DNA from: Gemmata obscuriglobus
GTDB lineage: Bacteria > Planctomycetota > Planctomycetia > Gemmatales > Gemmataceae
Direction of reading: 5' to 3'
Assembly: GCF_008065095.1 (NCBI RefSeq)
Contig: NZ_CP042911.1
Span: 5,220,001 to 5,252,000 of the forward strand
Length of the DNA stretch: 32,000 nucleotides
Shown: one piece after another, positions 1 to 25,913 of the stretch
Layout: the number at the start of each line of letters is the position of its first letter
How positions within the stretch are numbered: position 1 is the stretch's first letter
Notes under the pieces: generated by a model
Told to the model about the DNA's origin: nothing
What the model saw: the letters and a program-made list of their open reading frames with translations, nothing else
The model's database searches: none
Made by a program: the position numbers and the translations under genes

Positions 1-156
1 CGTGTCCCGAGGCACCGCCAGCCGCGCCCAACCGCACCTCGCGGCGACGAGCCGCGCCCACCCCGACCGGCACCACGCGGAGCCCGACGCGCCGGCGTCA
101 CCTTCGCGGATCACACGCCCACCGCCGCCGCACGCGCGATCGAGCGCCTCGGGGTT
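1..156 (-). repeat. ORF-less cassette family U, partial copy cut by the window edge
   Basis: Aligns by eye with the attC-distal part of units 2051-2385 and 7850-8185. Contains the hairpin motif CGCGGCGACGAGCCGCG at 40-56 and the conserved tail ...CACGCGCGATCGAGCGCCTCGGGGTT abutting the core at 157. Confidence 0.7.
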
Positions 157-247
157 GCCGAACAAACAGCTCACCTGCACCGCCATCACCGGATGAGCGA
201 TGCGCCTCAAATCAGATGGCGGTGTCAGGTGCAGCGCCGGGTTCGGC
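157..247 (-). repeat. attC-like structured inverted repeat (copy 1)
   Basis: GCCGAAC(157-163)-AAACA-GCT-CACCTG-CACCGCC / loop ATCACCGGATGAGCGATGCG... / GGCGGTG-T-CAGGTG-C-AGC-GCCGG-GTTCGGC(241-247). Read directly. Confidence 0.7.
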
Positions 248-254
248 CTTGAGC

Positions 255-410
255 CTAGTCCTTGCCAAGCACCAAGTCCACCACTCGAAAGCCCCGGACG
301 TGCGGACCGGAGCTGCGGCAGTGACCGAGCAACTGCTCGTCCTCGCACCCGACGTCTTGGAGCGCGTCGGCCAGGACCGGCATCGCGGAGAACTCCCGCG
401 ACACATCCAT
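255..410 (-). CDS. 51-aa ORF encoding a conserved C-terminal-type module (...LADALQDVGC...HCR..GPHVRGFRVVDLVLGKD); possibly the severed 3' part of the upstream cassette gene
   Basis: ATG 410-408, TAG 257-255. Translation is MDVSREFSAMPVLADALQDVGCEDEQLLGHCRSSGPHVRGFRVVDLVLGKD. I recognise this motif as recurrent in planctomycete/myxobacterial proteins but do not recall the family name. It is in the same frame as the upstream ORF tail (444-485), separated only by TGA 441-443. Confidence 0.45.
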   Translation of the reverse strand: MDVSREFSAMPVLADALQDVGCEDEQLLGHCRSSGPHVRGFRVVDLVLGKD

Positions 411-490
411 CTGACGGGCCAGCGCCAGAGCCGTGCCCGATCACCATCGCTCGGAGAAACTCACCGCCACCTTCTCAAGGAAGACTTCGA

Positions 491-1558
491 TAGGACTTAC
501 GTAGTTGACTTTTGGGTAAGTAGGTATGTAGGTGCGGCGAGGTAGGTTCGCACCGCTTCGCGCACGATGGCCGTCTTGGCCGCGAACCAACTGACGCCGG
601 ACTTGAGCCGGTGCCACTCGAGCCGCAGGAACGCGCGGATCGCGAGCCCGATGTGGACCGCTTGGGCCCGGCTCATGCGCACCTGGCACCGGTCCACGTG
701 GCAATGCTGCTTGAGGCCCCGGTGATACTCCTCGATGCCCCACGCGTGCCCGGCCAGAACCGCACGAGTGGCCTCGTCCATGTCGAGGTCGTTGGTGATC
801 CAATGCTCCGTGCCCCCATCACCGGTGGCGATCCGGAACGCCTTCACCAATCCGAACCCCTCCAGGTGCACCACCGTACCGGCGGCCCCGATCGGGCACC
901 CCTCGATGGCCCGATTGCCCGTGCGATCCGGGTTCACCCGCCGGTTGCTCCGCACCCGGGTCAGGAAGTGCCACCCCAGGGCCCGCACCGCCTTCAGGTT
1001 GTCCTTGCCCGAGTACCAGGTGTCGAACAGTACCACCCGGGGCGACAGGTCCCGTCCCTTGGCGACCGCCAGCATGGCTCGGAAGTGGTCGTTCTTGGTC
1101 TCGGCTCGGGCCGGGTCGGCGAGCCGGTAATCACACGGTACCAGGGCGGCCCCGTCGGTCCACAGCAGGGTCACCAGCCCGATCCCGCTCACCACCCGGC
1201 GGTGCCGCCCGGACCAGCACCGGCGCACCAGCCCCATGTGCCGGGCGAACGGCTTGTCCAGCACCGAGTCGTCGAGCACCACGGCACCGCCCGGGCGGAC
1301 CGACGACCGGGCTTCGTCCCACAACGCCGCTGGGTCCGGTTCCAGCCGGTGCAGCAGTCGGGTGAACGCATCATGCGCGGGCGCCGTCGGATGGTCCGGT
1401 TGGGCTCGCGCGGCTTCCGCGGCCGACGCCACCTTGGGGGTGGCGATCAGGAATTGGATGTAGTCCTCGGCGCTCGCACGTGGTGCGTTCATGGCCCGAT
1501 CATAGACCAACAACACACCATGCGCAAATCCTGCGCCAGCGCAACTGCGTAAGTCCTA
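491..1558 (-). mobile_element. IS701-like (IS4-superfamily) insertion sequence with 5-bp target duplication
   Basis: Terminal inverted repeats TAGGACTTACGTAGTTG (491-507) and CAACTGCGTAAGTCCTA (1542-1558) match 16/17. Direct repeat TTCGA lies at 486-490 and 1559-1563. A single transposase ORF fills the element. Confidence 0.85.
497..1516 (-). CDS. DDE transposase, IS701-like
   Basis: 339-aa ORF. Motifs ...VLFDTWYSGKDNLKAVRALGWHFLTRVRSNRRV... and ...WGIEEYHRGLKQHCHVDRCQVR... are typical of IS701/IS4-type DDE transposases. Family assignment is from memory. Confidence 0.8.
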   Translation of the reverse strand: MLLVYDRAMNAPRASAEDYIQFLIATPKVASAAEAARAQPDHPTAPAHDAFTRLLHRLEPDPAALWDEARSSVRPGGAVVLDDSVLDKPFARHMGLVRRCWSGRHRRVVSGIGLVTLLWTDGAALVPCDYRLADPARAETKNDHFRAMLAVAKGRDLSPRVVLFDTWYSGKDNLKAVRALGWHFLTRVRSNRRVNPDRTGNRAIEGCPIGAAGTVVHLEGFGLVKAFRIATGDGGTEHWITNDLDMDEATRAVLAGHAWGIEEYHRGLKQHCHVDRCQVRMSRAQAVHIGLAIRAFLRLEWHRLKSGVSWFAAKTAIVREAVRTYLAAPTYLLTQKSTT

Positions 1559-1939
1559 TTCGATCTCCGTGTCGCTGTTGTTGCCCACGAACTCCCCGAA
1601 CACCCCGCCCAGGAACGACCAGCCCCCACGGTCCATCAGCACTGCGAGTTTGTCGAACGGGATGCGGACCAGCCACTCCGGTTGCTGCCCCTGGGCTACG
1701 AAGTACTCACGGGCGACAGTCACCAAGTCGTCGATGCTCCGAACTCCGGGGTCGCAAGAGTCGGCGAGGTCGCCTTCGGGTAACTCCTGCTCCTGCCACC
1801 CCCACACACCGGAGTCGGAGGCGAATGCGTCGTGGAGGCCGTCAACCTCGTCGGACCACACTTCCGGCACGTCATGTTCGCGGTAGCTGAAGACGAACTT
1901 GGCTCGCCGGCCCGCAGTGCGGTTCTTACCGTCTCCCAT
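1556..1939 (-). CDS. Cassette ORF, hypothetical 127 aa, 3' end displaced by the IS insertion
   Basis: ATG 1939-1937 is preceded by GGAGGGG, about 20 nt after the attC-like core. The stop TAG (1558-1556) is supplied by the IS terminus. Removing the IS and one TSD copy restores ...DTEIEVFLEKVAVSFSERW* using 441-485. Confidence 0.7.
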   Translation of the reverse strand: MGDGKNRTAGRRAKFVFSYREHDVPEVWSDEVDGLHDAFASDSGVWGWQEQELPEGDLADSCDPGVRSIDDLVTVAREYFVAQGQQPEWLVRIPFDKLAVLMDRGGWSFLGGVFGEFVGNNSDTEIE

Positions 1940-1959
1940 CCGCTGCGTCCCCTCCGGTG

Positions 1960-2050
1960 GCCGAACGAACAGCTCACCTGCACCGCCATCACCGGATGAG
2001 CGGTGCGTCCCAAGTCAGCGGGCGGTGTCAGGTGCAGCGCCGGGTTCGGC
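1960..2050 (-). repeat. attC-like structured inverted repeat (copy 2)
   Basis: Cores GCCGAAC 1960-1966 and GTTCGGC 2044-2050. Consensus arms with bulged T and C on the right arm. Loop class ATCACCGGATGAGCGG. Confidence 0.7.
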
Positions 2051-2385
2051 TCGCTCACGTCCGCGCCGCGCATCCGCGGAAGCCCGCCCACCGGTGCGGG
2101 CGGGCGGAGCACCACCGACCCGATGCGCCGTGTCGCGGCCCACCGGAGGCCACCCACTGCCACCCGCGGCGATGAGCCGCGCCCGGCACCCCCGGGCACC
2201 ACGCGGAGCCACCACCGACCCGCACCGCCGTGTCCCCACGCGCCGCCAGCCACGACCAACCGCACCTCGCGGCGATGAGCCGCGCCCGTCGCACTCGGGC
2301 ACCACGCGGAGCCCGACCCGCGGCGTTTACTCACGCGGACCACACGCCCACCACCGCCGCACGCGCGATCATGCACGCGGTGGTT
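2051..2385 (-). repeat. ORF-less cassette family U, copy U1
   Basis: 335 bp between attC-like sites. Two ~100-bp sub-repeats each carry CGCGGCGATGAGCCGCG (2165-2181, 2268-2284). Essentially identical to 2900-3234. Confidence 0.75.
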
Positions 2386-2475
2386 GCCGAACAACAAGCT
2401 CACCTGCACCGCCAGGATGAAGTGCGCATGACAACGGTGGCCGATGGCGGTGTCAGGTGCAGCGCCGGGTTCGGC
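2386..2475 (-). repeat. attC-like structured inverted repeat (copy 3)
   Basis: Cores at 2386-2392 and 2469-2475. Same arms, with a different loop class (AGGATGAAGTGCGCATGACAACGG...). Confidence 0.7.
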
Positions 2476-2808
2476 TCGCTCACGTCCGCGCCGCGCATCC
2501 GCGGATGCCCGCGCCACCGATGCGGCCACGCGGAGCACCGCCGACCCGGAGCACCGTGTCGCCGCACGTCGGAGGCCACCCACCACCCCCACTCGCGGCG
2601 ACGAGCCGCGCCGACCACCGACCGGTGTTGGCGGAGCGCCACCGACCCGAACCGCCGTGTCCCCACCCGCCGCCCGCCACGCCCAACCGCACCTCGCGGC
2701 GACGAGCCGCGCCCGCGCCCACCGGCACTCTGCGGAGCCCGACGCGCGGGGTTCACCCACGCGGACCACACGCACACCGCCGCACGGGCGCTCCAGCACG
2801 CGAGGGTG
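2476..2808 (-). repeat. ORF-less cassette family U, copy U2 (diverged)
   Basis: 333 bp with the same block order as U1, carrying substitutions and indels. Contains the perfect palindrome GCATCCGCGGATGC and two CGCGGCGACGAGCCGCG hairpins. Confidence 0.75.
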
Positions 2809-2899
2809 GCCGAACGAACAGCTCACCTGCACCGCCATCACCGGATGAGCGGTGCGTCCCAAGCCCGATGGCGGTGTCAGGTGCAGCGCCGGGTTCGGC
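2809..2899 (-). repeat. attC-like structured inverted repeat (copy 4)
   Basis: Cores at 2809-2815 and 2893-2899. Consensus arms. Confidence 0.7.
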
Positions 2900-3234
2900 T
2901 CGCTCACGTCCGCGCCGCGCATCCGCGGAAGCCCGCCCACCGGTGCGGGCGGGCGGAGCACCACCGACCCGATGCGCCGTGTCGCGGCCCACCGGAGGCC
3001 ACCCACTGCCACCCGCGGCGATGAGCCGCGCCCGGCACCCCCGGGCACCACGCGGAGCCACCACCGACCCGCACCGCCGTGTCCCCACGCGCCGCCAGCC
3101 ACGACCAACCGCACCTCGCGGCGATGAGCCGCGCCCGTCGCACTCGGGCACCACGCGGAGCCCGACCCGCGGCGTTTACTCACGCGGACCACACGCCCAC
3201 CACCGCCGCACGCGCGATCATGCACGCGGTGGTT
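2900..3234 (-). repeat. ORF-less cassette family U, copy U3 (duplicate of U1)
   Basis: Reads the same as 2051-2385 by eye. The ORF-track translations through the two copies are identical. Confidence 0.75.
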
Positions 3235-3325
3235 GCCGAACGAACAGCTCACCTGCACCGCCATCACCGGATGAGCGGTGCGTCACAAGTCAGCGGGCGG
3301 TGTCAGGTGCAGCGCCGGGTTCGGC
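3235..3325 (-). repeat. attC-like structured inverted repeat (copy 5)
   Basis: Cores at 3235-3241 and 3319-3325. Consensus arms. Confidence 0.7.
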
Positions 3326-3659
3326 TCGCTCACATCCGCGCCGCGCATCCGCGGATGCCCGCCCACCGGTGCGACCGGGCGGAGCACCACCGAACCACGG
3401 CGCCGTGTCCCGACACATCGGGGGCCACCCACCACCGCCACACGCGGCGATGAGCCGCGCCCGCAACCGATCGGTCTCAGCGGAGCACCACCGACCCGCA
3501 CCACCGTGTCCCCATCCGCACCCGGCCACAACCACCGCAAGCTCGCGGCGACGAGCCGCGCCAGCCCCAACCGGCACCACGCGAAGCCCGACGCGCGCGG
3601 TTCACCACCGCGGACCACACGCACACCGCCGCACGCGCGCCCTCATGCACGCGATGGTT
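3326..3659 (-). repeat. ORF-less cassette family U, copy U4 (diverged)
   Basis: 334 bp with the same block order and two hairpin motifs (about 3443 and 3543). Confidence 0.75.
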
Positions 3660-3750
3660 GCCGAACATAAAGCTCACCTGCACCGCCATCACCGGATGAG
3701 CGGTGCGTTCCAAGTCAGCGGGCGGTGTCAGGTGCAGCGCCGGGTTCGGC
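3660..3750 (-). repeat. attC-like structured inverted repeat (copy 6)
   Basis: Cores at 3660-3666 and 3744-3750. Consensus arms. Confidence 0.7.
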
Positions 3751-4179
3751 GTACCGTGTCGATCGGGCGCCCAGCCAGAAGCAAGCGGCAGCCCCGACCA
3801 CGGCGTCCGCCGTCACCCCACCCACCAGCAGCCAGGCGAGTGGTTTTACTTGCCCTCCCCGGAACACCACTAGGAGAAGGAAGCAGAGCACGCCTGTGGC
3901 GACCAGACCGCTGAACAGGTAGCCGAACAGATTGGCCGGCGCCCTGTCGGGTCGCCTCCACCGGTACAGCGACCAGACCAACCCGGCCGTTGCTCCGATC
4001 ACCGCCCCGCAGGGGGGGCCAAAGAGATAGAGAACAAGCCCGAGGGCATTGAAGCCCTCCCCGGGCTTGGGAGGGAACATCCGGGGCTGGATCAATTCGA
4101 CGAAGGCAACTGCACCGAGAAAAACGAGCACCGCACCAGCAACAGCCGCAGCCAGGGTCCAGCCGATGACACGAAGCAC
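3715..4179 (-). CDS. Cassette ORF: small 4-TM membrane protein (~154 aa)
   Basis: Proposed GTG start at 4179-4177, 6 nt after AAGGTG (alternative GTG at 4188). Four hydrophobic spans: WTLAAAVAGAVLVFLGAVAFV, ALGLVLYLFGPPCGAVIGATAGLVW, LFGYLFSGLVATGVLCFLLLVVF, LAWLLVGGVTADAVVGAAACFWL. The 3' end runs into the attC-like site. Confidence 0.55.
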   Translation of the reverse strand: MLRVIGWTLAAAVAGAVLVFLGAVAFVELIQPRMFPPKPGEGFNALGLVLYLFGPPCGAVIGATAGLVWSLYRWRRPDRAPANLFGYLFSGLVATGVLCFLLLVVFRGGQVKPLAWLLVGGVTADAVVGAAACFWLGARSTRYAEPGAAPDTAR

Positions 4180-4242
4180 CGCGTTCACCTTGGGTTGTCG
4201 GCCCGTACTAGAGCGGAGTGCTTTTGCACGAGAGCCTCTGTG

Positions 4243-4333
4243 GCCGAACAAAGAGCTCACCTGCACCGCCACCATCGGATGAGCGGTGCGTCCCAAGTCA
4301 GCCGGCGGTGTCAGGTGCAGCGCCGGGTTCGGC
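4243..4333 (-). repeat. attC-like structured inverted repeat (copy 7)
   Basis: Cores at 4243-4249 and 4327-4333. Consensus arms. Confidence 0.7.
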
Positions 4334-4340
4334 TCTGTCC

Positions 4341-4718
4341 TCAGCGCGGTCGGCGCATGACGACGAGAGTGCGTCCTCCGCTCGCGGTGTCCAAGCTCAC
4401 GACCAGTTGAGCGTAGGCCGGGGCGCCCTGCAGCCGTACTTCTTCGATCACTGTGCCGTCGTCGTCCTGTGCCCGACAGATCATCGACCCACCTGGCCCG
4501 AGACATGAACCGCCGGCAAGGGATTTGCGGTATGGTCCCGGCAATCGGGGCGGGGCCACGACCTCCCACCCATCGTATCCGGCCACGACGGCTTCCAGGG
4601 AGACGAACGGTCGCTCCTGTCGTGTGGCCGATTCCGCGTGCCGGCCCCAGGGTGACAGCCAATAACCGGCACACCCCGCACCGAGTAACACGACGACCAC
4701 AAGCCACCGCACCCGCAT
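4341..4718 (-). CDS. Cassette ORF: putative lipoprotein (125 aa)
   Basis: ATG 4718-4716 follows GGAAGGGGGA. N-terminus MRVRWLVVVVLLGAGCAG is a signal peptide with a lipobox-like LLGAGC. Stop lies 8 nt before the attC-like site. Confidence 0.65.
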   Translation of the reverse strand: MRVRWLVVVVLLGAGCAGYWLSPWGRHAESATRQERPFVSLEAVVAGYDGWEVVAPPRLPGPYRKSLAGGSCLGPGGSMICRAQDDDGTVIEEVRLQGAPAYAQLVVSLDTASGGRTLVVMRRPR

Positions 4719-4735
4719 CCGATCCCCCTTCCGGT

Positions 4736-4848
4736 GCCGAACGATGAAGCTCACCGGCCCGGCCGCGACACCCGTGTGCGGCAGAGACGCGCGGGGAGCA
4801 ACGGGAAACAAACTACATGGCCGGGTCCGGTGCAGCGCCGGGTTCGGC
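4736..4848 (-). repeat. attC-like structured inverted repeat (copy 8, covarying stem, long loop)
   Basis: GCCGAAC(4736-4742)-GATGAA-GCT-CACCGG-CCCGGCC / 55-nt loop / GGCCGGG-T-CCGGTG-C-AGC-GCCGG-GTTCGGC(4842-4848). Stem bases changed on both arms; bulged T and C retained. Confidence 0.7.
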
Positions 4849-4871
4849 GTGCCTTTGCTCCAGGCGGGCGG

Positions 4872-5249
4872 CTACATGACGTGGATGTCCTTGAGCCGCA
4901 CCACCTGCCCGCCCTGCACGCGGACCAGCCAGAACGTCGCGGTCAGGTCGGAAGCCACCCCGTCGATGTTGAGGTCGTACCAAATCTCGCCCACCGCGTC
5001 GGACCCGTCGGCCGCTTCCCAGCGGTCCACCACCCTGCGCTGGGGAAGCCCACGCGACTCGCCCGCGACGGTAGCGCGTCCGCCAGAGCCCTCGATCGCC
5101 CACCGCACGCGGTTCGGTGCCCAGCGCCCCTCGTCAGGAGGGATCAACTCGTTCGCGGCCTCGTAGTCGCCTTGCTCCAGAAGTCCCACCCAGCGATCGA
5201 CCAGCGCCACCAACTCAGCGTCGGTGGCGGCCTCTGGTAGTGGCGACAT
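4872..5249 (-). CDS. Cassette ORF: hypothetical protein (125 aa)
   Basis: ATG 5249-5247 lies 18 nt after the core of the upstream attC-like site; TAG at 4874-4872. Acidic soluble protein ending ...DLTATFWLVRVQGGQVVRLKDIHVM. No family recognised. Confidence 0.65.
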   Translation of the reverse strand: MSPLPEAATDAELVALVDRWVGLLEQGDYEAANELIPPDEGRWAPNRVRWAIEGSGGRATVAGESRGLPQRRVVDRWEAADGSDAVGEIWYDLNIDGVASDLTATFWLVRVQGGQVVRLKDIHVM

Positions 5250-5266
5250 GGATCAGCGCCTCGGGT

Positions 5267-5356
5267 GCCGAATGTGGAGCTCACCTGCTCGCGCGCCCTG
5301 GAGGGGGCGATCCCCGAGTTCTGCATGCGCGAGTCTGGTGCAGCGGAGGGTTCGGC
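5267..5356 (-). repeat. attC-like structured inverted repeat (copy 9, covarying stem; extra third arm at 5395-5413)
   Basis: GCCGAAT(5267-5273)-GTGGA-GCT-CACCTG-CTCGCGC / loop / GCGCGAG-T-CTGGTG-C-AGC-GGAGG-GTTCGGC(5350-5356). In addition, 5395-5413 GGTGAGCTCCACATTCGGC is the perfect reverse complement of 5267-5285. Confidence 0.65.
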
Positions 5357-5552
5357 CCCGCGCCCCACCACGCCGAACATGGGCTGCCCGTGAAGGTGAG
5401 CTCCACATTCGGCCCCGCTCATGCAGCCCGGCAGATGAGCTACACCGATCCGCTCGCGCCTCGGGGGTGGGCGCGGGTCGGGCCAGCCACTTGGGATGGG
5501 GGGCTGGCTACCCTATCGACATCGCGCCCACCCCCGTGGGTCTCGGCGCGGG

Positions 5553-5642
5553 GCCGAACAGAAAGCTCACCTGCACCGCCAGGATGGAGTGAGCGACACA
5601 ACGGCGGCTGATGGCGGTGTCAGGTGCAGCGCCGGGTTCGGC
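5553..5642 (-). repeat. attC-like structured inverted repeat (copy 10)
   Basis: Cores at 5553-5559 and 5636-5642. Consensus arms. Loop class AGGATGGAGTGAGCG.... Confidence 0.7.
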
Positions 5643-6002
5643 TCGCTCGCCTCCGCGGTTCCGGGCGACACGCCGAGCTTGGCGCATCCGCGGAACCCGC
5701 GGCACCGGTGCGGCCGAGCGGAGCCCCACCGACTCGAATCGCCGTGTCGCGGCCCACCGGTGGCCACCCATCACCGCACCTCGCGGCGACGAGCCGCGCC
5801 CGCCCTGACGCGCGCCACGCGGAGCACCACCGACCCGAACCGCCGTGTCCCCACCCGCACCCCGGCCACGCCCAACCACACCTCGCGGCGACGAGCCGCG
5901 CCCGCCCCGACCGGCACCACGCGGAGCCACCACCGACGCGTGGGCGTCACCTTCGCGGACCACACGCCCACCACCGCACGCGCGATCCAGAACGCGAAGG
6001 TG
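5643..6002 (-). repeat. ORF-less cassette family U, copy U5
   Basis: 360 bp, same block order, two CGCGGCGACGAGCCGCG hairpins. Confidence 0.75.
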
Positions 6003-6093
6003 GCCGAACATAAAGCTCACCTGCACCGCCCCCTCCCAGGGAGCGATGCGTCACAAACTCGCGGGCGGTGTCAGGTGCAGCGCCGGGTTCGGC
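6003..6093 (-). repeat. attC-like structured inverted repeat (copy 11)
   Basis: Cores at 6003-6009 and 6087-6093. Loop class CCCTCCCAGGGAGCGATGCG. Identical to copy 14. Confidence 0.7.
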
Positions 6094-6446
6094 TCGCTCC
6101 GCACCGCGGTTCCTGGCCACGGGCCGAGCGTCGCGCATCCGCGGAGCCCGTGCCACCGGTGCGGGCGTGCGGAGCACCACCGACTCGACGCACCGTGTCG
6201 CGGCCCACCGGAGGCCACCCACCACCGCACCTCGCGGCGATGAGCCGCGCCAGGCACCCACGGGCACCACGCGGAGCACCACCGACTCGAACCGCCGTGT
6301 CCCCACGCGCCCCCGGCCACGCCCACCCGCACTTCGCGGCGACGAGCCGCGCCAACCACCGACCGGCACCACGCGGAGCCACCACCGTCTGATGCCCCGC
6401 GGACCACACGCCCACCGCCGCCCGCGCGCTCCAGAACGCCCGGGTG
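6094..6446 (-). repeat. ORF-less cassette family U, copy U6 (identical to U8)
   Basis: 353 bp. Reads identical to 7406-7758, and the ORF-track translations are identical. Confidence 0.75.
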
Positions 6447-6538
6447 GCCGAACAATCAAGCTCACCTGCACCGCCATCACACGATGAGCGGTGCGCCCCG
6501 AATCAGCGGGCGGTGTCAGGTGCAGCGCCGGGTTCGGC
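6447..6538 (-). repeat. attC-like structured inverted repeat (copy 12)
   Basis: Cores at 6447-6453 and 6532-6538. 6-nt unpaired spacer AATCAA on the left arm. Confidence 0.7.
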
Positions 6539-6955
6539 GTCTGTGAGCCACCGCACTGCGAAGTGGTCGTAGTGCAGGGCCGCGAACCGCTCGCGGAGTT
6601 GGGCCGCGAGCCACCAGAACTTGGCCCGGCGGTCGGCGGTCAGACCCGGGTCGGACCACACAGATAGCCGGCGGGAGCACCCGGCGACCACCTCCGGCGG
6701 GGCCGGTAGGTCAGGGCCGGCGGCCAGTTCTGCGCTGTCGGCCAACACCTCCGCTCCCTCCTCCAACCACGCCACCACGGCCCAGGAGGTGAACCGCACC
6801 CGGAAACCGGTTGGGCTACGGGCTTCGGGTGCTAACTCGGCCTGGACCGACCGCCGACCGCACTGTCGGCCATCGAAGTACGCGACAGCCGCAGCCAGAG
6901 AGAAGTCACTCGACGCCGGCAAGTGCGCCAACATCTTCAGACGACCGTCGCTCAT
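6503..6955 (-). CDS. Cassette ORF: hypothetical protein (150 aa)
   Basis: ATG 6955-6953 (MSDGRLKMLAHL...) lies 15 nt after the core, with AGAGGG upstream. The track's longer N-terminus (MMAVQVSFMFG) is a translation of the attC loop. The C-terminal tail ...AEPGAAPDTAR is encoded by the downstream attC-like site. Confidence 0.6.
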   Translation of the reverse strand: MSDGRLKMLAHLPASSDFSLAAAVAYFDGRQCGRRSVQAELAPEARSPTGFRVRFTSWAVVAWLEEGAEVLADSAELAAGPDLPAPPEVVAGCSRRLSVWSDPGLTADRRAKFWWLAAQLRERFAALHYDHFAVRWLTDAEPGAAPDTAR

Positions 6956-6970
6956 CCGCGGCCCTCTGGT

Positions 6971-7061
6971 GCCGAACATAAAGCTCACCTGCACCGCCAT
7001 CATCGGATGAGCGGTGCGTCACAAACGAGCGGGCGGTGTCAGGTGCAGCGCCGGGTTCGGC
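6971..7061 (-). repeat. attC-like structured inverted repeat (copy 13)
   Basis: Cores at 6971-6977 and 7055-7061. Consensus arms. Confidence 0.7.
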
Positions 7062-7314
7062 TCGCATGACTCCGCGGTTCGGGGGCGCACGCCGAGCGTC
7101 GCGGCTCCGCGGAGCCCGGGCCACCGGTGCGGCCGAGCGGAGCACCACCGACCCGCATCACCGTGCTGCCGCACACCGGAGGACACGACCAACCGCACCT
7201 CGCGGCGATGAGCCGCGCCGGCCACCCACCGGCACCACGCGGAGCCCGACACCGGAGTTCGCCCACGCGGACCACACGCCTACCGCCGCACGCGCCCTCA
7301 TGCACGCGAGGGTT
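7062..7314 (-). repeat. ORF-less cassette family U, short copy U7 (one sub-repeat)
   Basis: 253 bp with only one CGCGGCGATGAGCCGCG hairpin (about 7200). Head and tail blocks are as in the other copies. Confidence 0.7.
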
Positions 7315-7405
7315 GCCGAACATAAAGCTCACCTGCACCGCCCCCTCCCAGGGAGCGATGCGTCACAAACTCGCGGGCGGTGTCAGGTGCAGCGCCGGGT
7401 TCGGC
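7315..7405 (-). repeat. attC-like structured inverted repeat (copy 14)
   Basis: Cores at 7315-7321 and 7399-7405. Identical to copy 11. Confidence 0.7.
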
Positions 7406-7758
7406 TCGCTCCGCACCGCGGTTCCTGGCCACGGGCCGAGCGTCGCGCATCCGCGGAGCCCGTGCCACCGGTGCGGGCGTGCGGAGCACCACCGACTCGA
7501 CGCACCGTGTCGCGGCCCACCGGAGGCCACCCACCACCGCACCTCGCGGCGATGAGCCGCGCCAGGCACCCACGGGCACCACGCGGAGCACCACCGACTC
7601 GAACCGCCGTGTCCCCACGCGCCCCCGGCCACGCCCACCCGCACTTCGCGGCGACGAGCCGCGCCAACCACCGACCGGCACCACGCGGAGCCACCACCGT
7701 CTGATGCCCCGCGGACCACACGCCCACCGCCGCCCGCGCGCTCCAGAACGCCCGGGTG
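7406..7758 (-). repeat. ORF-less cassette family U, copy U8 (identical to U6)
   Basis: See 6094-6446. Confidence 0.75.
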
Positions 7759-7849
7759 GCCGAACAAATAGCTCACCTGCACCGCCATCACCGGATGAGC
7801 GATGCGTCACAACTCAGATGGCGGTGTCAGGTGCAGCGCCGGGTTCGGC
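7759..7849 (-). repeat. attC-like structured inverted repeat (copy 15)
   Basis: Cores at 7759-7765 and 7843-7849. Consensus arms. Confidence 0.7.
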
Positions 7850-8185
7850 TTCGTCGCTGGCAGTTGCGGTTCCGCGAAGCCCGCGCTCGTACCGCGCATC
7901 CGCGGAGCCACCACCGACACCCACCACCGTGTCGCGGCCCACCGAGGGCCACCCACCACCGCACCTCGCGGCGATGAGCCGCGCCGACCACCGGCGGGCG
8001 CCACGCGGAGCGCCACCGACCCGAACCGCCGTGTCCCCATGCGCACCCGGCCACGCCCAACCACACCTCGCGGCGGCGAGCCGCGCCAGACCCGATCGGC
8101 ACCACGCGGAGCCCGACCCGCGGGCGTCACCCACGCGGACCACACGCCCACAACCGCCGCACGCGCGATCGAGCGCCTCGGGGTT
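7850..8185 (-). repeat. ORF-less cassette family U, copy U9
   Basis: 336 bp with two hairpin motifs; the second is the variant CGCGGCGGCGAGCCGCG. The tail is the same as in the partial copy at 1-156. Confidence 0.75.
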
Positions 8186-8277
8186 GCCGAACCAGGAGCT
8201 GAGCTGCAAGCCGCCCCTCTCAGGGCGGTCTCCCCTTGCTCCCGCGACGGCTTGTCAGCTCCAGCGGGGGGTTCGGC
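8186..8277 (-). repeat. attC-like structured inverted repeat (copy 16, covarying stem; extra third arm at 8315-8338)
   Basis: GCCGAAC(8186-8192)-CAGGA-GCT-GAGCTG-CAAGCCG / loop / CGGCTTG-T-CAGCTC-C-AGC-GGGGG-GTTCGGC(8271-8277). In addition, 8315-8338 is the perfect reverse complement of 8186-8209. Confidence 0.65.
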
Positions 8278-8511
8278 CGACGGCCGCCTCCTTCCGCCAG
8301 AGGGTGAGTGAGCGTTGCAGCTCAGCTCCTGGTTCGGCCGCCGCCGGATCCGCTCAGCCCACCGGGGACATCGCACGGCGGGAGATCACCATGCGACCTC
8401 AGGCCGCTCGGATCGGCGGGCCCTCGCCGGTCGCCTTCACCAGGGGGGAGGTGGCGACAACCTTACGACCGCCCGCCGATCCGCGGCGCGTACAACCACC
8501 TCACGGCGGCG

Positions 8512-8602
8512 GCCGAACGAACAGCTCACCTGCACCGCCATCATCGGATGAGCGATGCGTCCCGGAACAGATGGCGGTGTCAGGTGCAGCGCCGGGTTCG
8601 GC
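8512..8602 (-). repeat. attC-like structured inverted repeat (copy 17)
   Basis: Cores at 8512-8518 and 8596-8602. Consensus arms. Confidence 0.7.
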
Positions 8603-9065
8603 CTCGGGTGCGACACGAGCCAGCCAAGGGCGGCTCGTCTGAGTCGGCAACGAGGCCGGGGGAAGGCGGCTCGCCCTCGGCCAACGCTACTATGCCCTCG
8701 GCCTCCTCCTGCTCGGCGTCACTCATGCCGTCGAGGATGCTCCGCACGTTGTCGCCGTACATCCTCGCGGCCAACAGCGGAGCCAACTCGCGAAAGTCCG
8801 GCCCGTCGGTGCCAAAGTTCAAGAAGTGCTCGAACAGCACCTCCGACCCACGCTTGTCCTCGACTTCCCGCTTGTGCGGGCCGATACCGATCCAGTTGAC
8901 TTGCCCGTCGATGCCGTTGGACACGGCCTCCGAGCCGATGCCGCCGACGCCGACGACCGCATCGTACTCGCGGTCGCGGACGATGCCCATGCAGTCATGC
9001 ACACCGAAGCAACCGCTCGCGTCGGGGTCGCCGTTGTGCGTTCGCTTGTAAACTAGCACTCGCAT
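8580..9065 (-). CDS. Cassette ORF: hypothetical protein (161 aa)
   Basis: ATG 9065-9063 lies 6 nt after GAGGAG and 22 nt after the attC-like core. MRVLVYKRTHNGDPDASGCFGVHDCMGIVRDREYDAVVGVGGIG... looks like a globular conserved protein, but I do not recognise the family. The 3' end reads into the attC-like site. Confidence 0.7.
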   Translation of the reverse strand: MRVLVYKRTHNGDPDASGCFGVHDCMGIVRDREYDAVVGVGGIGSEAVSNGIDGQVNWIGIGPHKREVEDKRGSEVLFEHFLNFGTDGPDFRELAPLLAARMYGDNVRSILDGMSDAEQEEAEGIVALAEGEPPSPGLVADSDEPPLAGSCRTRGRTRRCT

Positions 9066-9087: not shown

Positions 9088-9178
9088 GCCGAACATAAAG
9101 CTCACCTGCACCGCCATCATCGGATCAGCGATGCGTTCCGAATCAGCCGGCGGTGTCAGGTGCAGCGCCGGGTTCGGC
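9088..9178 (-). repeat. attC-like structured inverted repeat (copy 18)
   Basis: Cores at 9088-9094 and 9172-9178. Consensus arms. Confidence 0.7.
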
Positions 9179-9183
9179 GTGCC

Positions 9184-9588
9184 TTATTGGGCGTCGCGGG
9201 CCTCCTGCCGCAGCTCCGCCAGATACACCTCGAAGCTGCCGTACCGCTCCTCGACCTCGTGGGCCTCGTGTTGGTAGAACCCGACACCCCACATGGCACC
9301 ACCGCGGTCCACGAACCAGTAGTCCCCAGCCCCGTTGGTGCCGACGACGAGGTAGCTCGCTGGCCACGGCTCCTCGTCCTCACCAACGGTCATCCAGGCC
9401 GCCCGCTGCCGCGCCGCCAAATTCTCTCGGATGATGGCATCCGCGTCGGTCCACAGCACAGCGCGTTGCGGGAGGGTCGCCTTGATCCGGCGAACTTCGT
9501 CAGCGTGGCGGCGGAGGAAGTCGCGGTACTCGCCGGGCAGCGGATGGCCGAGCGCCGACTCGATCCGGGCAACCTCGGCTTCGCCCAT
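9184..9588 (-). CDS. Cassette ORF: SMI1/KNR4 (SUKH-1) family protein, immunity-protein-like (134 aa)
   Basis: MGEAEVARIESALGHPLPGEYRDFLRRH... plus ...YLVVGTNGAGDYWFVDRGG...GFYQHE match the SMI1/KNR4 pattern (N-terminal 'LP.eY..FL', central 'G.GdY' block). ATG 9588 lies 17 nt after core 9606-9612, with GGAGGG upstream. Confidence 0.75.
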   Translation of the reverse strand: MGEAEVARIESALGHPLPGEYRDFLRRHADEVRRIKATLPQRAVLWTDADAIIRENLAARQRAAWMTVGEDEEPWPASYLVVGTNGAGDYWFVDRGGAMWGVGFYQHEAHEVEERYGSFEVYLAELRQEARDAQ

Positions 9589-9605: not shown

Positions 9606-9830
9606 GCCGAACCAGTGTTTAGTGTGCGAGGCTTCGCGCAATAACACGGGATGATTTCACCCGGCGCACCACGCGCCGGGAACCGAACTACTTGCCGGAA
9701 CTGTCGTTACCGTGTGAAGGGCGTCTTCACAATATGCGCAACAACACGGTAATGGGCCGTGCGAAACTTCGACTCACACCTTCACGGCTCGCACAATAAC
9801 ACGGTAACGGTCCGTGCGAACGTGAACGTT
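9606..9830 (-). promoter_or_regulatory. Array boundary: lone core half-site (GCCGAAC 9606-9612) followed by a repeat-rich non-coding region; candidate attI-like / regulatory region
   Basis: The core is present, but no arm sequences and no partner GTTCGGC follow. Three direct copies of GCRCAAYAACACGG lie at 9636-9649, 9736-9749 and 9791-9804; the last two extend to ~32 nt (...ACACGGTAAYGGKCCGTGCGAA). An inverted partial copy GTTACCGTGT lies at 9706-9715, and a hairpin CCGGCGC-ACCAC-GCGCCGG at 9661-9679. Confidence 0.4.
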
Positions 9831-10151
9831 ACTTCGGTGCTTCTCGCGGTGATCTTTGCTTTCTAGTTGCACGGGCCGGCGCATTCTCTCGCGCCGATCG
9901 GGCCGACACGATCAGAAGTGTACCCACGTCGTCGCCCGCGCTCAAGACCCTTATCCCGATTCGGTCCAGTGTCTGCGCGCCCGTTCGCCCATCTCGTTCC
10001 GCCGGCGCCGCACTCATTGCGCCGCTCGCGGAGCCATCCCACCTCCCGCACACTGAACATGATTCCTTGACATACCCACCCCGGCGGCACCAGCGGACGG
10101 GGCAACACAGCGTCTTCCGGGCTCCCAACCGATCACCAAGGCCGTACCCAC

Positions 10152-10210: not shown

Positions 10211-11482
10211 TCAGCTCTTTTCATCGTCCTTGTCTTCCACTGACCGGATGAACTCCAGCGCGCCACGCCGCACGCCCCCGACGGCACGCCAGTAGCCCAC
10301 TACCACGATTAGCCAGCCCATCAGGATCGCCGCCTGCTCGTAGAGCAGCCAATCGGCGTCCGGCTTCTTCGGGCGCCCGTGAATTACGTACTGCTCCCAC
10401 CCGACGATTACGAGAACCGGAATGAGGGCGAAAAGGAACCCGAGCCACCCGACCTGCCGGGCCACCTTCGGCCGCTTGAGCGCGAGCCCGCTGGCGGTCA
10501 GCGCGGTGAGGAACCAGAACTCCGCCAGCGGGGCGGACACGAGCAGCGCCAGCCGCGCGTACTTCACCTCCTCCGGGAACGGCACCTTCTCGCACACGAT
10601 CCAAACCGGCACGGACACGAAGGCGACCAGGGTCAGGAGACCGCTCAGCGCGAACATTCCGCCGGCGCCGCTGTTCCGCGGGGCGCCGCCGCTGAACAGC
10701 CGCCCGATCACCATCAGGAACCCGGCCAGCGCGCCGAGCAGCCCGTAGGTGGCGAGGTTGATTTCGTCGGACTTCGAGAGCGGGATCGAGTTCGGCCCGC
10801 CCGAGTTGATGTAGCCTTCGATCTGGACCCACCCCTCGCCCTTGGGCAGTTCGCCGACGGAGCGAGTGTAAACCGCTTTGCCGAACTCGACGAACCCGAG
10901 CAGCGCGACGAACAGCAGCGAGAACCGGACCCAGAAGAGCCCGCGGCGCACGGACGCCCACTTCTTCGCGAGCACCTGTTCGGGGTTCTTCTCCGCCGCC
11001 TTCTTCTTGGGCTCGGGCGCGGCCGGCTTGGGGCGCGGCTTGCTCCCGCGGTCACCTCGCTTGGGCGCGGGCGGCGGTGCGTCCGGGTCCGGTTCGAGTT
11101 CGGGCGGCGGGGCCGACGGGAACGGCCGCGACGCGGCGGTCGGCACCGGGCCGGTGGCGGCGGGTTGGTTCGGCAGCGCACCCCAATCGGCCGCGGCGGC
11201 CGGCGACTCGGGCAGTTTGGCCCGCACCGGCGCGACGGGCGGGCGCGACGGGGCCGGGCGCGGCTGCGACGGCGGCAGCAGGTCCGACTCGAACGCGGGC
11301 CGCGACGGGGCCGGGGGCGGCGGCGGCGGCTCGACCGGGACCGTCGGCGCGGCCCCGCCCTCTTCGGGCACCGGCACCGGCACCGCGGTCTGGCAGTACG
11401 GGCACTTCACCCGCTTACCCGCGGACTCGTCGCGGGCGCGGAACCGCTTCCCGCACGACGGGCACCCCAGTGTGATCGGCAT
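10211..11482 (-). CDS. Zinc-ribbon / Pro-rich linker / multi-TM membrane protein (423 aa)
   Basis: N-terminus MPITLGCPSCGKRFRARDESAGKRVKCPYCQ has CxxC...CxxC. A long P/A-rich linker is followed by several hydrophobic spans in the C-terminal half. Confidence 0.8.
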   Translation of the reverse strand: MPITLGCPSCGKRFRARDESAGKRVKCPYCQTAVPVPVPEEGGAAPTVPVEPPPPPPAPSRPAFESDLLPPSQPRPAPSRPPVAPVRAKLPESPAAAADWGALPNQPAATGPVPTAASRPFPSAPPPELEPDPDAPPPAPKRGDRGSKPRPKPAAPEPKKKAAEKNPEQVLAKKWASVRRGLFWVRFSLLFVALLGFVEFGKAVYTRSVGELPKGEGWVQIEGYINSGGPNSIPLSKSDEINLATYGLLGALAGFLMVIGRLFSGGAPRNSGAGGMFALSGLLTLVAFVSVPVWIVCEKVPFPEEVKYARLALLVSAPLAEFWFLTALTASGLALKRPKVARQVGWLGFLFALIPVLVIVGWEQYVIHGRPKKPDADWLLYEQAAILMGWLIVVVGYWRAVGGVRRGALEFIRSVEDKDDEKS

Positions 11483-11553: not shown

Positions 11554-12561
11554 CTATTGTGCGGATTCGGAACCGGAACGGTTACTCTCCGCGGCCGCGC
11601 GCCCGGCCGCAAAGAGCGAGTAGTGAATGAACGAGTACGCGGCATTAAACAGGTAGACGACCAAGAGGCCGCCCAAAAGGAGGCCCGCGCGCTGTGCGAC
11701 CGGTATCGGGGCGGCAGGCGGTGCGGGCCGCGCCGCGGGGACCGGCGCCGGGCGCGGCAGAAACTCCGCAAACAGACCGGCATAGATGATCAGCGCCATG
11801 AGCACGACCCAGGCGGACACCATCAACTGGAGCGCCAGCGCGACCGCTCCCGCCCGCCGGCGGAGCCGGTCGGTCGGCAGCGCGCCGCCGACAACTCCCA
11901 TCCCGGCGACTACACTCACTTCCGCCACGAAGCCGGCAACGGCAGCGAGCGCGTACAGCCGTCCGACCCACTCGGTCCCCACCGCCCGGTCGCCGCGGCT
12001 CACCAGCGCGAACGCCACGAAGAGCAGCGCGCAGAGGAGCGCCAGGAACCGCAAACCGCTCAAGCAGAACGCGCCCATCAGGACGCCCAAGCCGCTGGTC
12101 CCGGCCGGCAACTGCAGCATCATCAACCGCCCGGCGCAGACGCAGCCGGTGCCGACGAGGAGGAGGCCAAAGAACACGGGCGCAGAATAGTCGCTGTTGA
12201 CCCGAGCAACCGGGATCACTCCGAGCCGCCCAAGCCCCACACCCGCCACGACCATAAACATTAGCGTGACGGCAAGGAACTCCGTCACGATGCCCCACTC
12301 GACCCACCGACACCCGCGGGCGAACGACCGCCACGGCCCCGCCGAGCCGTGCCCCGCGGTTCCGCGAGTGCGGCGGCCCGGCACCGGCGATTTGCGGGTC
12401 ACCGGCGGCTCGCCCTCATCGGGAATCGGAAGCAGTTCGACCTCTGGGCCCGGCACGGTCGAGAGCGCCTTGCAGTGGGGGCACCGGACCAATTGTCCGG
12501 CCCGGTGCTCCGGTGCCTCAAGCGGTTCGTCGCAGTGCGAGCAGGTGAGCGAAATCGGCAT
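11554..12561 (-). CDS. Zinc-ribbon multi-TM membrane protein, paralog-like of the downstream gene (335 aa)
   Basis: N-terminus MPISLTCSHCDEPLEAPEHRAGQLVRCPHCK has CxxC...CxxC. The C-terminal half is hydrophobic. Confidence 0.75.
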   Translation of the reverse strand: MPISLTCSHCDEPLEAPEHRAGQLVRCPHCKALSTVPGPEVELLPIPDEGEPPVTRKSPVPGRRTRGTAGHGSAGPWRSFARGCRWVEWGIVTEFLAVTLMFMVVAGVGLGRLGVIPVARVNSDYSAPVFFGLLLVGTGCVCAGRLMMLQLPAGTSGLGVLMGAFCLSGLRFLALLCALLFVAFALVSRGDRAVGTEWVGRLYALAAVAGFVAEVSVVAGMGVVGGALPTDRLRRRAGAVALALQLMVSAWVVLMALIIYAGLFAEFLPRPAPVPAARPAPPAAPIPVAQRAGLLLGGLLVVYLFNAAYSFIHYSLFAAGRAAAESNRSGSESAQ

Positions 12562-24334: not shown

Positions 24335-25913
24335 TAAGCGTTCACGGGCGATTTGCCCCGCGTTTTCCCGTGCCTTTTGAGCCCTTTCCGTGGGCGGTTG
24401 CCACTGGCGAGTGTGTCCTGTGACCGATCTAACGCCATGACACCTGTTCCTCAACCGCCGGACCTCCCAGTCGACCTGCCGCCTCACGTGGTGGCGTATA
24501 TCCGGGCACTCGAAGCCACGATTGCCCAGCTCACGGCCCAGGTCGCCGAACTGACCGCCCGTCTCAACCAGAACTCGACCAACTCGTCGAAGCACCCGTC
24601 GTCCGACGCCCCGCACGTGAACCCGGCCCCGCCCAAGGGGGCCTCGGGCACGCGTCGCGGGGGCCAACCGGGACACCCCAAAGCGGAACGCACCGTTCTG
24701 CCGCCCGATGAGATCCGGGCCCTCCAGCCGTCCACGTGCCGGGGGGGCGCGCCCGCTGACCGGGGACGACCCGGAACCGGCCGTTCATCAGGTCCACGAG
24801 ATCCCCGTCGTCAAGCCCCACGTGACCGAGTACCGGTGCCACCGGCTCCGGTGCCCACACGGCGGCACGACCACGGTGTCCCTGGTGCCCGCCGGGGCGA
24901 CCACCGGATACGGCCCTCGGGCCCAGGCCGTGGCCGCGCTTCTCACCGGCTCGTGCCGCCTAGGCAAGCGGGGCGTGAGCCAACTGTTCGGCGACCTGTT
25001 CGGGCTACCGCTGAGCCCGGCCATGGTGTGCAAGCTCCAGCACCGATCCGCCCAGGCGCTGGCCCCGGTGGCCGACGCGGCCCTCGTCTACACCCGTGGC
25101 CAACCGGCCAACGTGGACGAAGCGGGCTGGACGCAAGGGCGTCAGCGGGCCTGGCTGTGGGCCGCCGTGACCACGCTGGTGGTGGCGTTCCTGATCCGCC
25201 GGACTTGTGGCCGAGCCGCCTTGGACGACCTCCGGGCCGGTTCGACCCAGGTGCACACGACCGACCGGTATCCGGTGTACACCCACTTGCGCCCGCACAA
25301 GCGGCAAGTGTGTTGGGCGCACCTGCGACGCGATTTCCAGGCGATGATCGACCGGGGCGGTTCCGGACAGGCGATCGGCGCGGCTCTGCTGGCGTGTTCG
25401 GACGCCCTGTTCGAGAACTGGTATCGGGTGCGGGACGGAACCCTCGCGCGGTCCACATGTCGCTCGACCTACATCCCCGCGTTGCGTCGTCAGGTTGGGG
25501 AGCACCTGCGGAGCGGGGCCGCGTGCGGCTGCGCCGAGACGGCCGCCACCTGCGCGGAGTTGTTGGCGGTCGAGGCGTCACGGTGGACGTTCGCGCGGGT
25601 GGCCGGCGTGGAACCGACCAACAACGCGGCCGAGCGCGAGGTGCGTCACGCCGTGTGCTGGCGGAAGACCAGCACACGGCACCGACAGCGAACGCCGGAG
25701 CCGGTTCGTAGAGCGGGTCCTCACGGTCATCGCCTCGTGTCGCCGGCAGAACCGCCATGTCCTGGAGTTCCTCACCGACGCCGTGACCGCGCACCGCACC
25801 GCACCGGCGCGACACCGCCGACCCTAATCCCAGCCGAAGCCCAACAGACTCCGATGCGGAATTCACTCCTCGCCAACTGTTGATACACTGCCGCATCACC
25901 CGTGAACGCTTAC
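24334..25913 (+). mobile_element. IS66-family insertion sequence (single-ORF type), degenerate
   Basis: Terminal inverted repeats GTAAGCGTTCACGGG (24334-24348) and CCCGTGAACGCTTAC (25899-25913), 15/15. GTAAGCG termini are characteristic of IS66. No 8-bp TSD is visible. Confidence 0.8.
24437..25827 (+). pseudogene. IS66-family transposase, disrupted by two +1 frameshifts
   Basis: N-terminal ...LEATIAQLTAQVAELTARLNQNSTNSSKHPSSDAP...GGQPGH.... The frame changes in the G7 run at 24741-24747 and again near 25671-25677, where ...CWRKTS|HGTDSERRSRFVERVLTVIASCRRQNRHVLEFL continues in the third frame. Confidence 0.8.

Follow-up and report, generated by a model that had tools for sequence, protein, structure and literature searches.

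The 32,000-nucleotide stretch of the Gemmata obscuriglobus (Planctomycetota) chromosome analyzed here (NZ_CP042911.1, positions 5,220,001 to 5,252,000 of the forward strand; hereafter the window, with coordinates counted from its first base) contains a long series of similar imperfect palindromes, and it raises the question of what these repeats are and what has preserved their shape. An earlier note, made from the sequence alone, had described compensatory covariation in the repeat stems and had proposed that the repeats are recognized as folded single strands, as attC sites are, rather than being a recently amplified repeat. The results described below indicate that the repeats are very probably attC sites of an integron cassette array, with the + strand of the window corresponding to the attC bottom strand. 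The array as annotated covers approximately 9.6 kb within the window and, in the G. obscuriglobus chromosome as a whole, 18 kb or more. On the left it extends beyond the window by a minimum of 8.4 kb, where 16 to 17 further sites bring the total to at least 34, and all sites in the window and in this left extension lie on one strand at cassette-sized spacing.

Eighteen sites of approximately 90 nt (90 to 113 nt), all in one orientation, were located in the window between positions 157 and 9178. Their + strand shows a common layout, GCCGAAC-5/6 nt-GCT-6 bp-7 bp-loop-7 bp-T-6 bp-C-AGC-5 nt-GTTCGGC, in which the 7-mers, the 6-mers, and GCT/AGC are complementary within each site and the T and the C remain unpaired. 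Fifteen copies share identical consensus arms (CACCTG-CACCGCC / GGCGGTG-T-CAGGTG): attC 1 (157-247), 2 (1960-2050), 3 (2386-2475), 4 (2809-2899), 5 (3235-3325), 6 (3660-3750), 7 (4243-4333), 10 (5553-5642), 11 (6003-6093), 12 (6447-6538), 13 (6971-7061), 14 (7315-7405), 15 (7759-7849), 17 (8512-8602), and 18 (9088-9178), the last one belonging to the cassette nearest the attI end. The remaining three carry variant stems, namely attC 8 (4736-4848; CACCGG-CCCGGCC / GGCCGGG-T-CCGGTG, with a 54-nt loop), attC 9 (5267-5356; CTCGCGC/GCGCGAG), and attC 16 (8186-8277; GAGCTG-CAAGCCG / CGGCTTG-T-CAGCTC). The coordinates and sequences quoted in the earlier note for the consensus arms and for copies 8, 9, and 16 were all correct. 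The motif of the 3' arm occurs 21 times in the window, against 1.5 occurrences expected.

Several features had been singled out in that note as fixed. The GCT/AGC clamp, the bulged T and C, and a non-complementary spacer are indeed present in all 18 copies. The 5-nt length of the spacer does not hold on the 5' side, where the spacer is A-rich and variable and has 6 nt in copies 8 and 12 against 5 nt in the other 16 sites; its 3' counterpart has 5 nt (GCCGG, GGAGG, or GGGGG) and does not pair with it. Likewise, the cores GCCGAAC and GTTCGGC are both found in 17 of the 18 sites, the exception being copy 9, with GCCGAAT as its 5' core. The loops, of 32 to 54 nt, fall into at least five classes (among them class B in attC 3 and 10 and class A' in attC 11), where at least three had been proposed.

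In characterized attC sites, the bottom strand carries an R' box (RYYYAAC) and an R'' box (GTTRRRY) and forms an unpaired central spacer of 5-6 nt; two bases are extrahelical, one at position 16 (usually G) and a T at position 23/24 that is conserved, with a required 6-bp stem between them, and in the recombined strand both are carried by the arm that faces the AAC triplet (PMC5027507). Numbering the window sites from the 3' end of the + strand places GTTCGGC at positions 1-7, the spacer at 8-12, AGC at 13-15, the unpaired C at 16, the 6-bp stem at 17-22, and the unpaired T at 23 in all 18 sites. The bulge spacing, which the earlier note had suggested comparing with that of characterized sites, agrees at positions 16 and 23 and in the 6-bp interval, but with C instead of G. 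The geometry is that of attC-aadA7 from mobile integrons (G16, T23), with AAC/GTT in the R boxes, a 5- to 6-nt spacer, base 16 after 3 bp, T23 after the 6-bp stem, and a variable terminal part. The Gemmata sites differ from it in C16 (150 of the 156 sites described below), in the R' box GCCGAAC, in their very GC-rich stems, and in loops of 31-56 nt as opposed to the approximately 3-10 nt of attC-aadA7-type sites.

Integrons of Planctomycetes were reported in genome surveys of 2007-2008 (PMC2426708) and in 2016 (PMC4889954), and a covariance model has been built from 188 Planctomycetes attCs, with the top-strand consensus GCCUAAC-AAuGC-GUU-G-CAgC ... GcUG-AaC-spacer-GUUAGGC (Ghaly et al., 2021; PMC8352920). 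The G. obscuriglobus sites resemble this model in the 7-nt core, the 5-nt spacer, and the 3 bp followed by one unpaired base and the stem. The unpaired top-strand G that the model has at position 16 (approximately 62% by emission score) is equivalent to a bottom-strand C, as in Gemmata. Compared by consensus, the model has cores GCCUAAC/GUUAGGC and a clamp GUU/AAC, whereas the Gemmataceae sites have GCCGAAC/GTTCGGC and GCT/AGC, with a compensated variant in the R box.

Minimum-energy folding of the sites as single-stranded DNA reproduced the attC-type structure. In the fold of attC 7, the R-box helix is followed by a 5x5 unpaired spacer and the 3-bp clamp; the C bulge separates the clamp from 6 bp, and the T bulge separates these from a further 7 bp. 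The bulge-bearing strand was more stable than its complement (mean difference -0.77 kcal/mol; 102 of 155 distinct sites; Wilcoxon p = 2e-6), and a difference in the same direction is known for the bottom strands of attC sites.

The three variant stems of the window permitted a direct look at the covariation. Relative to the consensus, 3 pairs have changed on both sides in copy 8, 4 in copy 9, and 6 in copy 16, and the 13 resulting pairs are all Watson-Crick. To this extent both arms changed together with pairing kept, as had been claimed for every case; copy 9 also contains one uncompensated change (CACCTG against CTGGTG), which leaves a T.T mismatch in the 6-bp stem. A different account of these repeats would be the recent amplification of a sequence in which compensation arose by chance or through gene conversion, with no selection on structure. 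The identity of the arms in 15 of the 18 window copies and the duplication of whole cassettes at 100% identity would fit such an origin. Identical attC arms are, on the other hand, usual in sedentary chromosomal integrons, and 13 two-sided changes, all Watson-Crick, against a single one-sided change (the T.T mismatch) speak against amplification with fortuitous compensation.

This question was settled with sites from other genomes. Searching prokaryotic genomes, one for each species, with the query GGTGCAGCGNNGGGTTCGGC returned 120 loci, many of them from Gemmata, other Gemmataceae, or Planctomycetota. Sites in related loci were located by the two 7-nt cores alone, with no requirement as to stem, clamp, or bulges, so that the alignment, anchored on the cores, was unbiased as to stems. 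Because MAFFT, applied to full-length sites, placed the stems of the variant copies 8 and 16 wrongly, arms were aligned in fixed register, each loop being represented by its first and last 4 nt. Of 187 core-anchored candidates, 156 formed 12 or more of the 16 stem pairs when the strand with the bulges was scored, while with the same geometry on the opposite strand 0 of 175 did so. The bulged T (T23) was kept in 153 and the bulged C (C16) in 150 of these 156 sites, which come from Gemmataceae contigs; in the 78 sites lying outside the window and not matching the retrieval pattern, T was kept in 76 and C in 72. The 156 sites had A-rich 5' spacers, G/C-rich 3' spacers, and 58 different 13-nt stems, and loops in the related-locus and window sites ranged from 8 to 79 nt in several unrelated classes. 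After reduction to 86 distinct arm sets, 95.1% of the cells paired, compared with 80.9% after shuffling; pairing in the stem helix was 92.9%, and two-sided changes were found in 13 of the 16 stem pairs, amounting to 244 cells. None of 500 shuffles reached any of five measures, and sliding the partner (3') arm by 1 to 3 columns lowered pairing to 24-45%.

Variant stems are consequently far more complementary than chance allows and the bulge positions are conserved, so that the refutation proposed in the earlier note fails. With 58 distinct stems, 92.9% stem-helix pairing over the 86 arm sets, no shuffle out of 500, and the collapse of pairing on sliding, amplification without structural selection is refuted, and we leave it virtually no probability. 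The accompanying statement that the repeats had not been recently amplified was half right: 15 of the 18 copies have identical arms and at least one cassette is a recent duplicate with 100% identity. Copy 8-type stems, including the 7-mer CCCGGCC/GGCCGGG with its 54-nt loop, recur in other Gemmataceae genomes. This recurrence indicates that the covariation seen in the window is that of old diverged attC lineages joined by cassette traffic; as judged from the stem sequences, the window's variants are such lineages and not local compensatory mutations.

Integron integrases were found beside sites of this type in related genomes. A locus from a member of the Planctomycetota (L061) encodes an integron integrase recognized by TIGR02249 (419 bits against a cut-off of 265); after it, on the same strand, come a GTTCGGC junction and then cassettes with the Gemmata type of attC, and the same arrangement of integrase and cassettes was found in loci L005, L010, and L117. 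The annotated integron integrase P0100 of Gemmata algarum aligned from end to end with VchIntIA (PDB 2A3V, E = 4e-84). Between intI and the edge of its contig (L123) lie 565 nt, which end in ...gcacactaaacactg.

The right end of the array in the window matches that edge. At positions 9613/9612 the minus strand of the window reads ...gcacactaaacactg and passes directly into GTTCGGC, and the L123 edge ends alike (...aaacactg, the bases before GTTCGGC). On the + strand this junction is marked by a lone GCCGAAC half-site (9606-9612), where the first cassette meets the attI-side sequence (minus strand, ...ctaaacactg and then GTTCGGC). The attI-side platform region (9613-10013, minus strand) shares 82% identity, across 401 nt, with the sequence downstream of intI in Gemmata sp. 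JC717 (L123, 7135-7534), and the junction with GTTCGGC falls at the same base in these two species. Three direct repeats CCGTGTTRTTG are held within 9613-10013, with no intI beyond, and L123 contains a second copy of the approximately 45-nt junction-proximal core at 7084-7127. From these similarities, the array appears to end in an attI-side region of the expected polarity that contains a candidate attI. Integrons with intI and cassettes in the same direction have been named the inverted integrase group (PMC3575428). In L061 and L123, intI and the cassettes or attI are on one strand, attI lying beyond the 3' end of intI; compared by arrangement, the polarity of the attI-side region in the window, which is without intI, is that of the inverted integrase type. 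The place of intI is taken in the window by the stop codon of an unrelated gene for a zinc-ribbon membrane protein (10211-11482). The end of this gene has a hairpin followed by a T-run that, read by eye, is terminator-like. It was not reported by the scan in which the attI-side region was examined for sigma-70 promoters, and no promoter was detected there either.

The segments between sites also have the character of gene cassettes. They measure 196-492 nt, except for one containing an insertion sequence (IS), and each holds one small open reading frame (ORF) or none. All seven credible cassette ORFs are on the minus strand, opposite to the bulge-bearing + strand, are promoterless, and have an attC just downstream, three of the stop codons lying inside the site. 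A cassette has moreover been duplicated: the segment 6003-6455 is 100% identical to 7315-7767 (attC 14 together with 7406-7767), and the identity starts and stops at R' boxes. The flanks of the two copies are only partly similar on the upstream side (as shown) and diverge within 2 nt on the downstream side. The absence of any mutation suggests a recent event, and the extent of the identity is consistent with re-insertion of a copied cassette by core-site recombination. The integron reading is based on the anatomy of the sites, their covariation, and the organization of the cassettes, together with the linkage of the same type of site to IntI in relatives, an end homologous to an attI region, and this cassette duplication. 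The earlier note's proposal of recognition as a folded single strand, as for attC, is supported by the agreement of the sites with attC at sequence level and by the integron integrases linked to them in sister genomes.

The same evidence bears on whether the repeats could be dispersed palindromes of the repetitive extragenic palindrome/bacterial interspersed mosaic element (REP/BIME) or miniature inverted-repeat transposable element (MITE) kind, unrelated to integrons and piled up here by chance. Imperfect palindromes of approximately 90 nt with terminal inverted 7-mers, present in many copies and with no integrase near, would be compatible with such elements. They are, however, strictly co-oriented, with one per cassette-sized unit; no target-site duplications accompany them; they conserve an attC-specific asymmetry across genera; they occur in linkage with TIGR02249 integrases and with an end homologous to attI; and in the 47 loci that carry them they are mostly found as arrays. 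We consider this origin extremely unlikely.

Several observations weigh against the identification of the repeats as attC sites of an integron, and some of them concern the integrase. No Phage_integrase or IntI match was obtained when the long ORFs of the window were compared with Pfam. Neither intI nor a recognizable intI pseudogene was detected by tblastn (E<=10) in the window, using Gemmata IntI and IntI1 as queries, or in the 8.4-kb left extension, using Gemmata IntI. In two protein searches, no cluster from the 9-Mb G. obscuriglobus chromosome was among the best 120 IntI homologues, which is suggestive only. The sites themselves fit attC geometry exactly except for C in place of G at position 16, and the 5' core GCCGAAC fits RYYYAAC at all but one position (the fourth, G, with C as its partner), the deviation being compensated. 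Binding and recombination of these attC sites as folded single strands, with cleavage between AA and C, are proposed here from the established integron model. Finally, covariation alone does not distinguish a DNA hairpin from an RNA hairpin.

This last point leads to an alternative in which the hairpins would act as RNA, as 3'-end stabilizers or terminators of small-gene transcripts. Each hairpin is immediately 3' of an ORF, and the stem covariation fits RNA pairing equally well; attC sites have, in addition, been proposed elsewhere to affect cassette expression. An RNA role provides no rationale, in contrast, for a geometry that is exactly that of attC, in which the bulged positions 16 and 23 are separated by 6 bp and an open spacer of 5-6 nt is flanked by AAC/GTT cores. 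Nor does it sit well with the presence of the same sites in ORF-less cassettes and beside integron integrases in relatives, with a cassette duplication running exactly between cores, or with the lack of a T-run after the hairpins and of an Rfam match. The Rfam search, covering the whole window at gathering thresholds and positions 1900-8600 at E<=1, yielded no relevant family; to our knowledge attC is not an Rfam family. An RNA function as the explanation of these repeats is accordingly regarded as highly improbable, and the repeats are treated below as attC sites.

As an integron-related structure, the array was compared with the known types. Clusters made up of two or more attC sites without an integron integrase nearby are termed CALIN, and in the survey that defined them 95% were without a detectable intI pseudogene and the mean size was approximately 5 sites (Cury et al., 2016; PMC4889954). 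The G. obscuriglobus array has 18 attC sites in the window and 16-17 to its left, with no intI in the window or in the 8.4-kb extension, and since the window lacks an integrase IntegronFinder would class it as a CALIN-type array. It differs from a typical CALIN in keeping an attI-side region and in having at least 34 sites rather than a mean of approximately 5. It also resembles the Vibrio cholerae superintegron with its VCR sites, which is likewise a long array in which the attC sites are nearly identical apart from a few that diverge, the terminal structures are long and variable, the cassettes are small and for the most part functionally uncharacterized, and both cassette duplications and IS insertions occur. 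Unlike that array, the one in Gemmata has an end without integrase, two extrahelical bases per site instead of three, and, in the window, more than half of its cassettes non-coding. The platform looks complete, as though intI had been lost or never received, and does not look like a fragment from the distal end of an array. At least 34 intact attC sites and an attI side persist without intI, and yet a cassette has been duplicated without mutation. We put forward only tentatively, as a rather unlikely extension, that cassette traffic may be driven in trans by an unlinked or unrecognized recombinase and that the G-rich cassettes of approximately 340 nt and the composite cassettes described below could be functional DNA or RNA.

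The way in which the sites would work follows from the integron model. Once single-stranded, the bottom strand would fold into a hairpin in which GCCGAAC/GTTCGGC forms the R box and GCT/AGC with the adjoining stem forms the L box, the 5- to 6-nt spacer between them staying open. C16 and T23 would flip out and dock onto integron-integrase monomers, and this docking is proposed to determine which strand is chosen and hence the orientation of the cassette. The integrase would then cut between AA and C in the 5' core. An enzyme reading shape and not sequence would let the stems drift as long as changes are compensated, while holding the cores, the spacer length, and the positions and identities of the bulges; this is the explanation that we propose for the covariation. 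Conserved shape, combined with stems free to vary in sequence and extrahelical bases that stay fixed, is a defining and well-studied property of attC, and in this respect the results add little that is new. What is gained is the annotation of the array, and specialists may note the lineage-wide C16, an attI side without integrase despite signs that a cassette was recently and precisely duplicated, and two non-coding cassette families that are conserved in Gemmataceae. In the literature on Gemmata together with integron or attC, no paper describing a Gemmata array was found.

The cassette ORFs of the window, all on the minus strand, code for one SUKH-1 family protein, one protein with a weak DUF7668 match, and orphans. 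Starting from the attI end, they are a 134-aa product of the SUKH-1/SMI1-KNR4 family (9184-9588); a 161-aa product with no family match, whose stop codon is inside attC 17 (8580-9065); a 150-aa product, also with no family match, with its stop codon inside attC 12 (6503-6955); a 125-aa product with the weak DUF7668 match (4872-5249); a second product of 125 aa, preceded by a Shine-Dalgarno-like AAGGGGG (4341-4718); a hydrophobic product of approximately 157 aa with an uncertain start (3715-4188); and a 127-aa product that is apparently truncated by an IS insertion (1556-1939). An exact match to this last protein assigns the window to G. obscuriglobus CP025958.1. The insertion sequence (491-1559, minus strand) lies in the cassette 248-1959 and consists of a DDE_5/DDE_Tnp_1 transposase gene (497-1516) and terminal inverted repeats TAGGACTTACG.

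Nine of the 18 window cassettes have no ORF and belong to a single family (2051-2385, 2476-2808, 2900-3234, 3326-3659, 5643-6002, 6094-6446, 7062-7314, 7406-7758, and 7850-8185), of which a partial copy is also present at 1-156. The first four form a block (2051-3659, minus strand) split by attC 3 to 5. Members are 80-86% alike, except that 2051-2385 and 2900-3234 are identical. Their GC content is 0.75-0.79, the cassette sense strand is strongly G-rich, and they are built of tandem units of 101-103 nt, each with a hairpin CGCGGC-GAYGA-GCCGCG. Mismatches between members show no 3-periodicity and indels are mostly of 1 nt; a coding function was thus unsupported, and the family is considered non-coding. 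A role as structured RNA was also considered and was unsupported, the covariation term of RNAalifold being unfavorable and no Rfam match being obtained. Copies approximately 82% identical to this family occur in Gemmata algarum arrays (L071, L067, L107, and L016).

The second non-coding arrangement involves attC 9 and attC 16, each of which has its own 5' arm repeated in inverted orientation 37-38 nt downstream (5267-5412 and 8186-8338). Both inverted copies are perfect and on the + strand: that of attC 9 (5394-5412) comprises R', the spacer, the clamp, and 4 nt, and that of attC 16 is at 8315-8338. The inverted arm offers an alternative hairpin with neither bulges nor open spacer. The composite of attC and inverted arm, with a common motif cgcctcgggggtcggcgcggg after it, is found again in several genomes of Gemmataceae (L117, 5067-5158; L002, 5345-5433; L043, 1962-2051; L026, 842-932) and in the left extension of the array.

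Some additional observations were made on the surroundings of the array and on the related loci. The gene that abuts the attI-side region (10211-11482) and the next one (11554-12561) are adjacent on the minus strand, and their products are membrane proteins that have a zinc-ribbon at the N terminus and linkers rich in Pro, Gly, and Ala. Approximately 15 kb from the array, two transposase genes lie side by side in DNA of lower GC content (24708-25883 and 26153-27556; IS66-family DDE and DDE_Tnp_1). Locus L010 (CAZKIQ010000141.1), binned as 'Alcaligenaceae', contains a Gemmata-type integron integrase and the exact consensus attC and is probably mis-binned. Locus L068 (CAWIGR010000022.1) comes from a 294-kb contig assigned by binning to 'Thermoleophilaceae' (Actinomycetota); within its positions 1-8000, at least three attC sites of the Gemmata family are present, which would be unusual for Actinomycetota if the binning is right.

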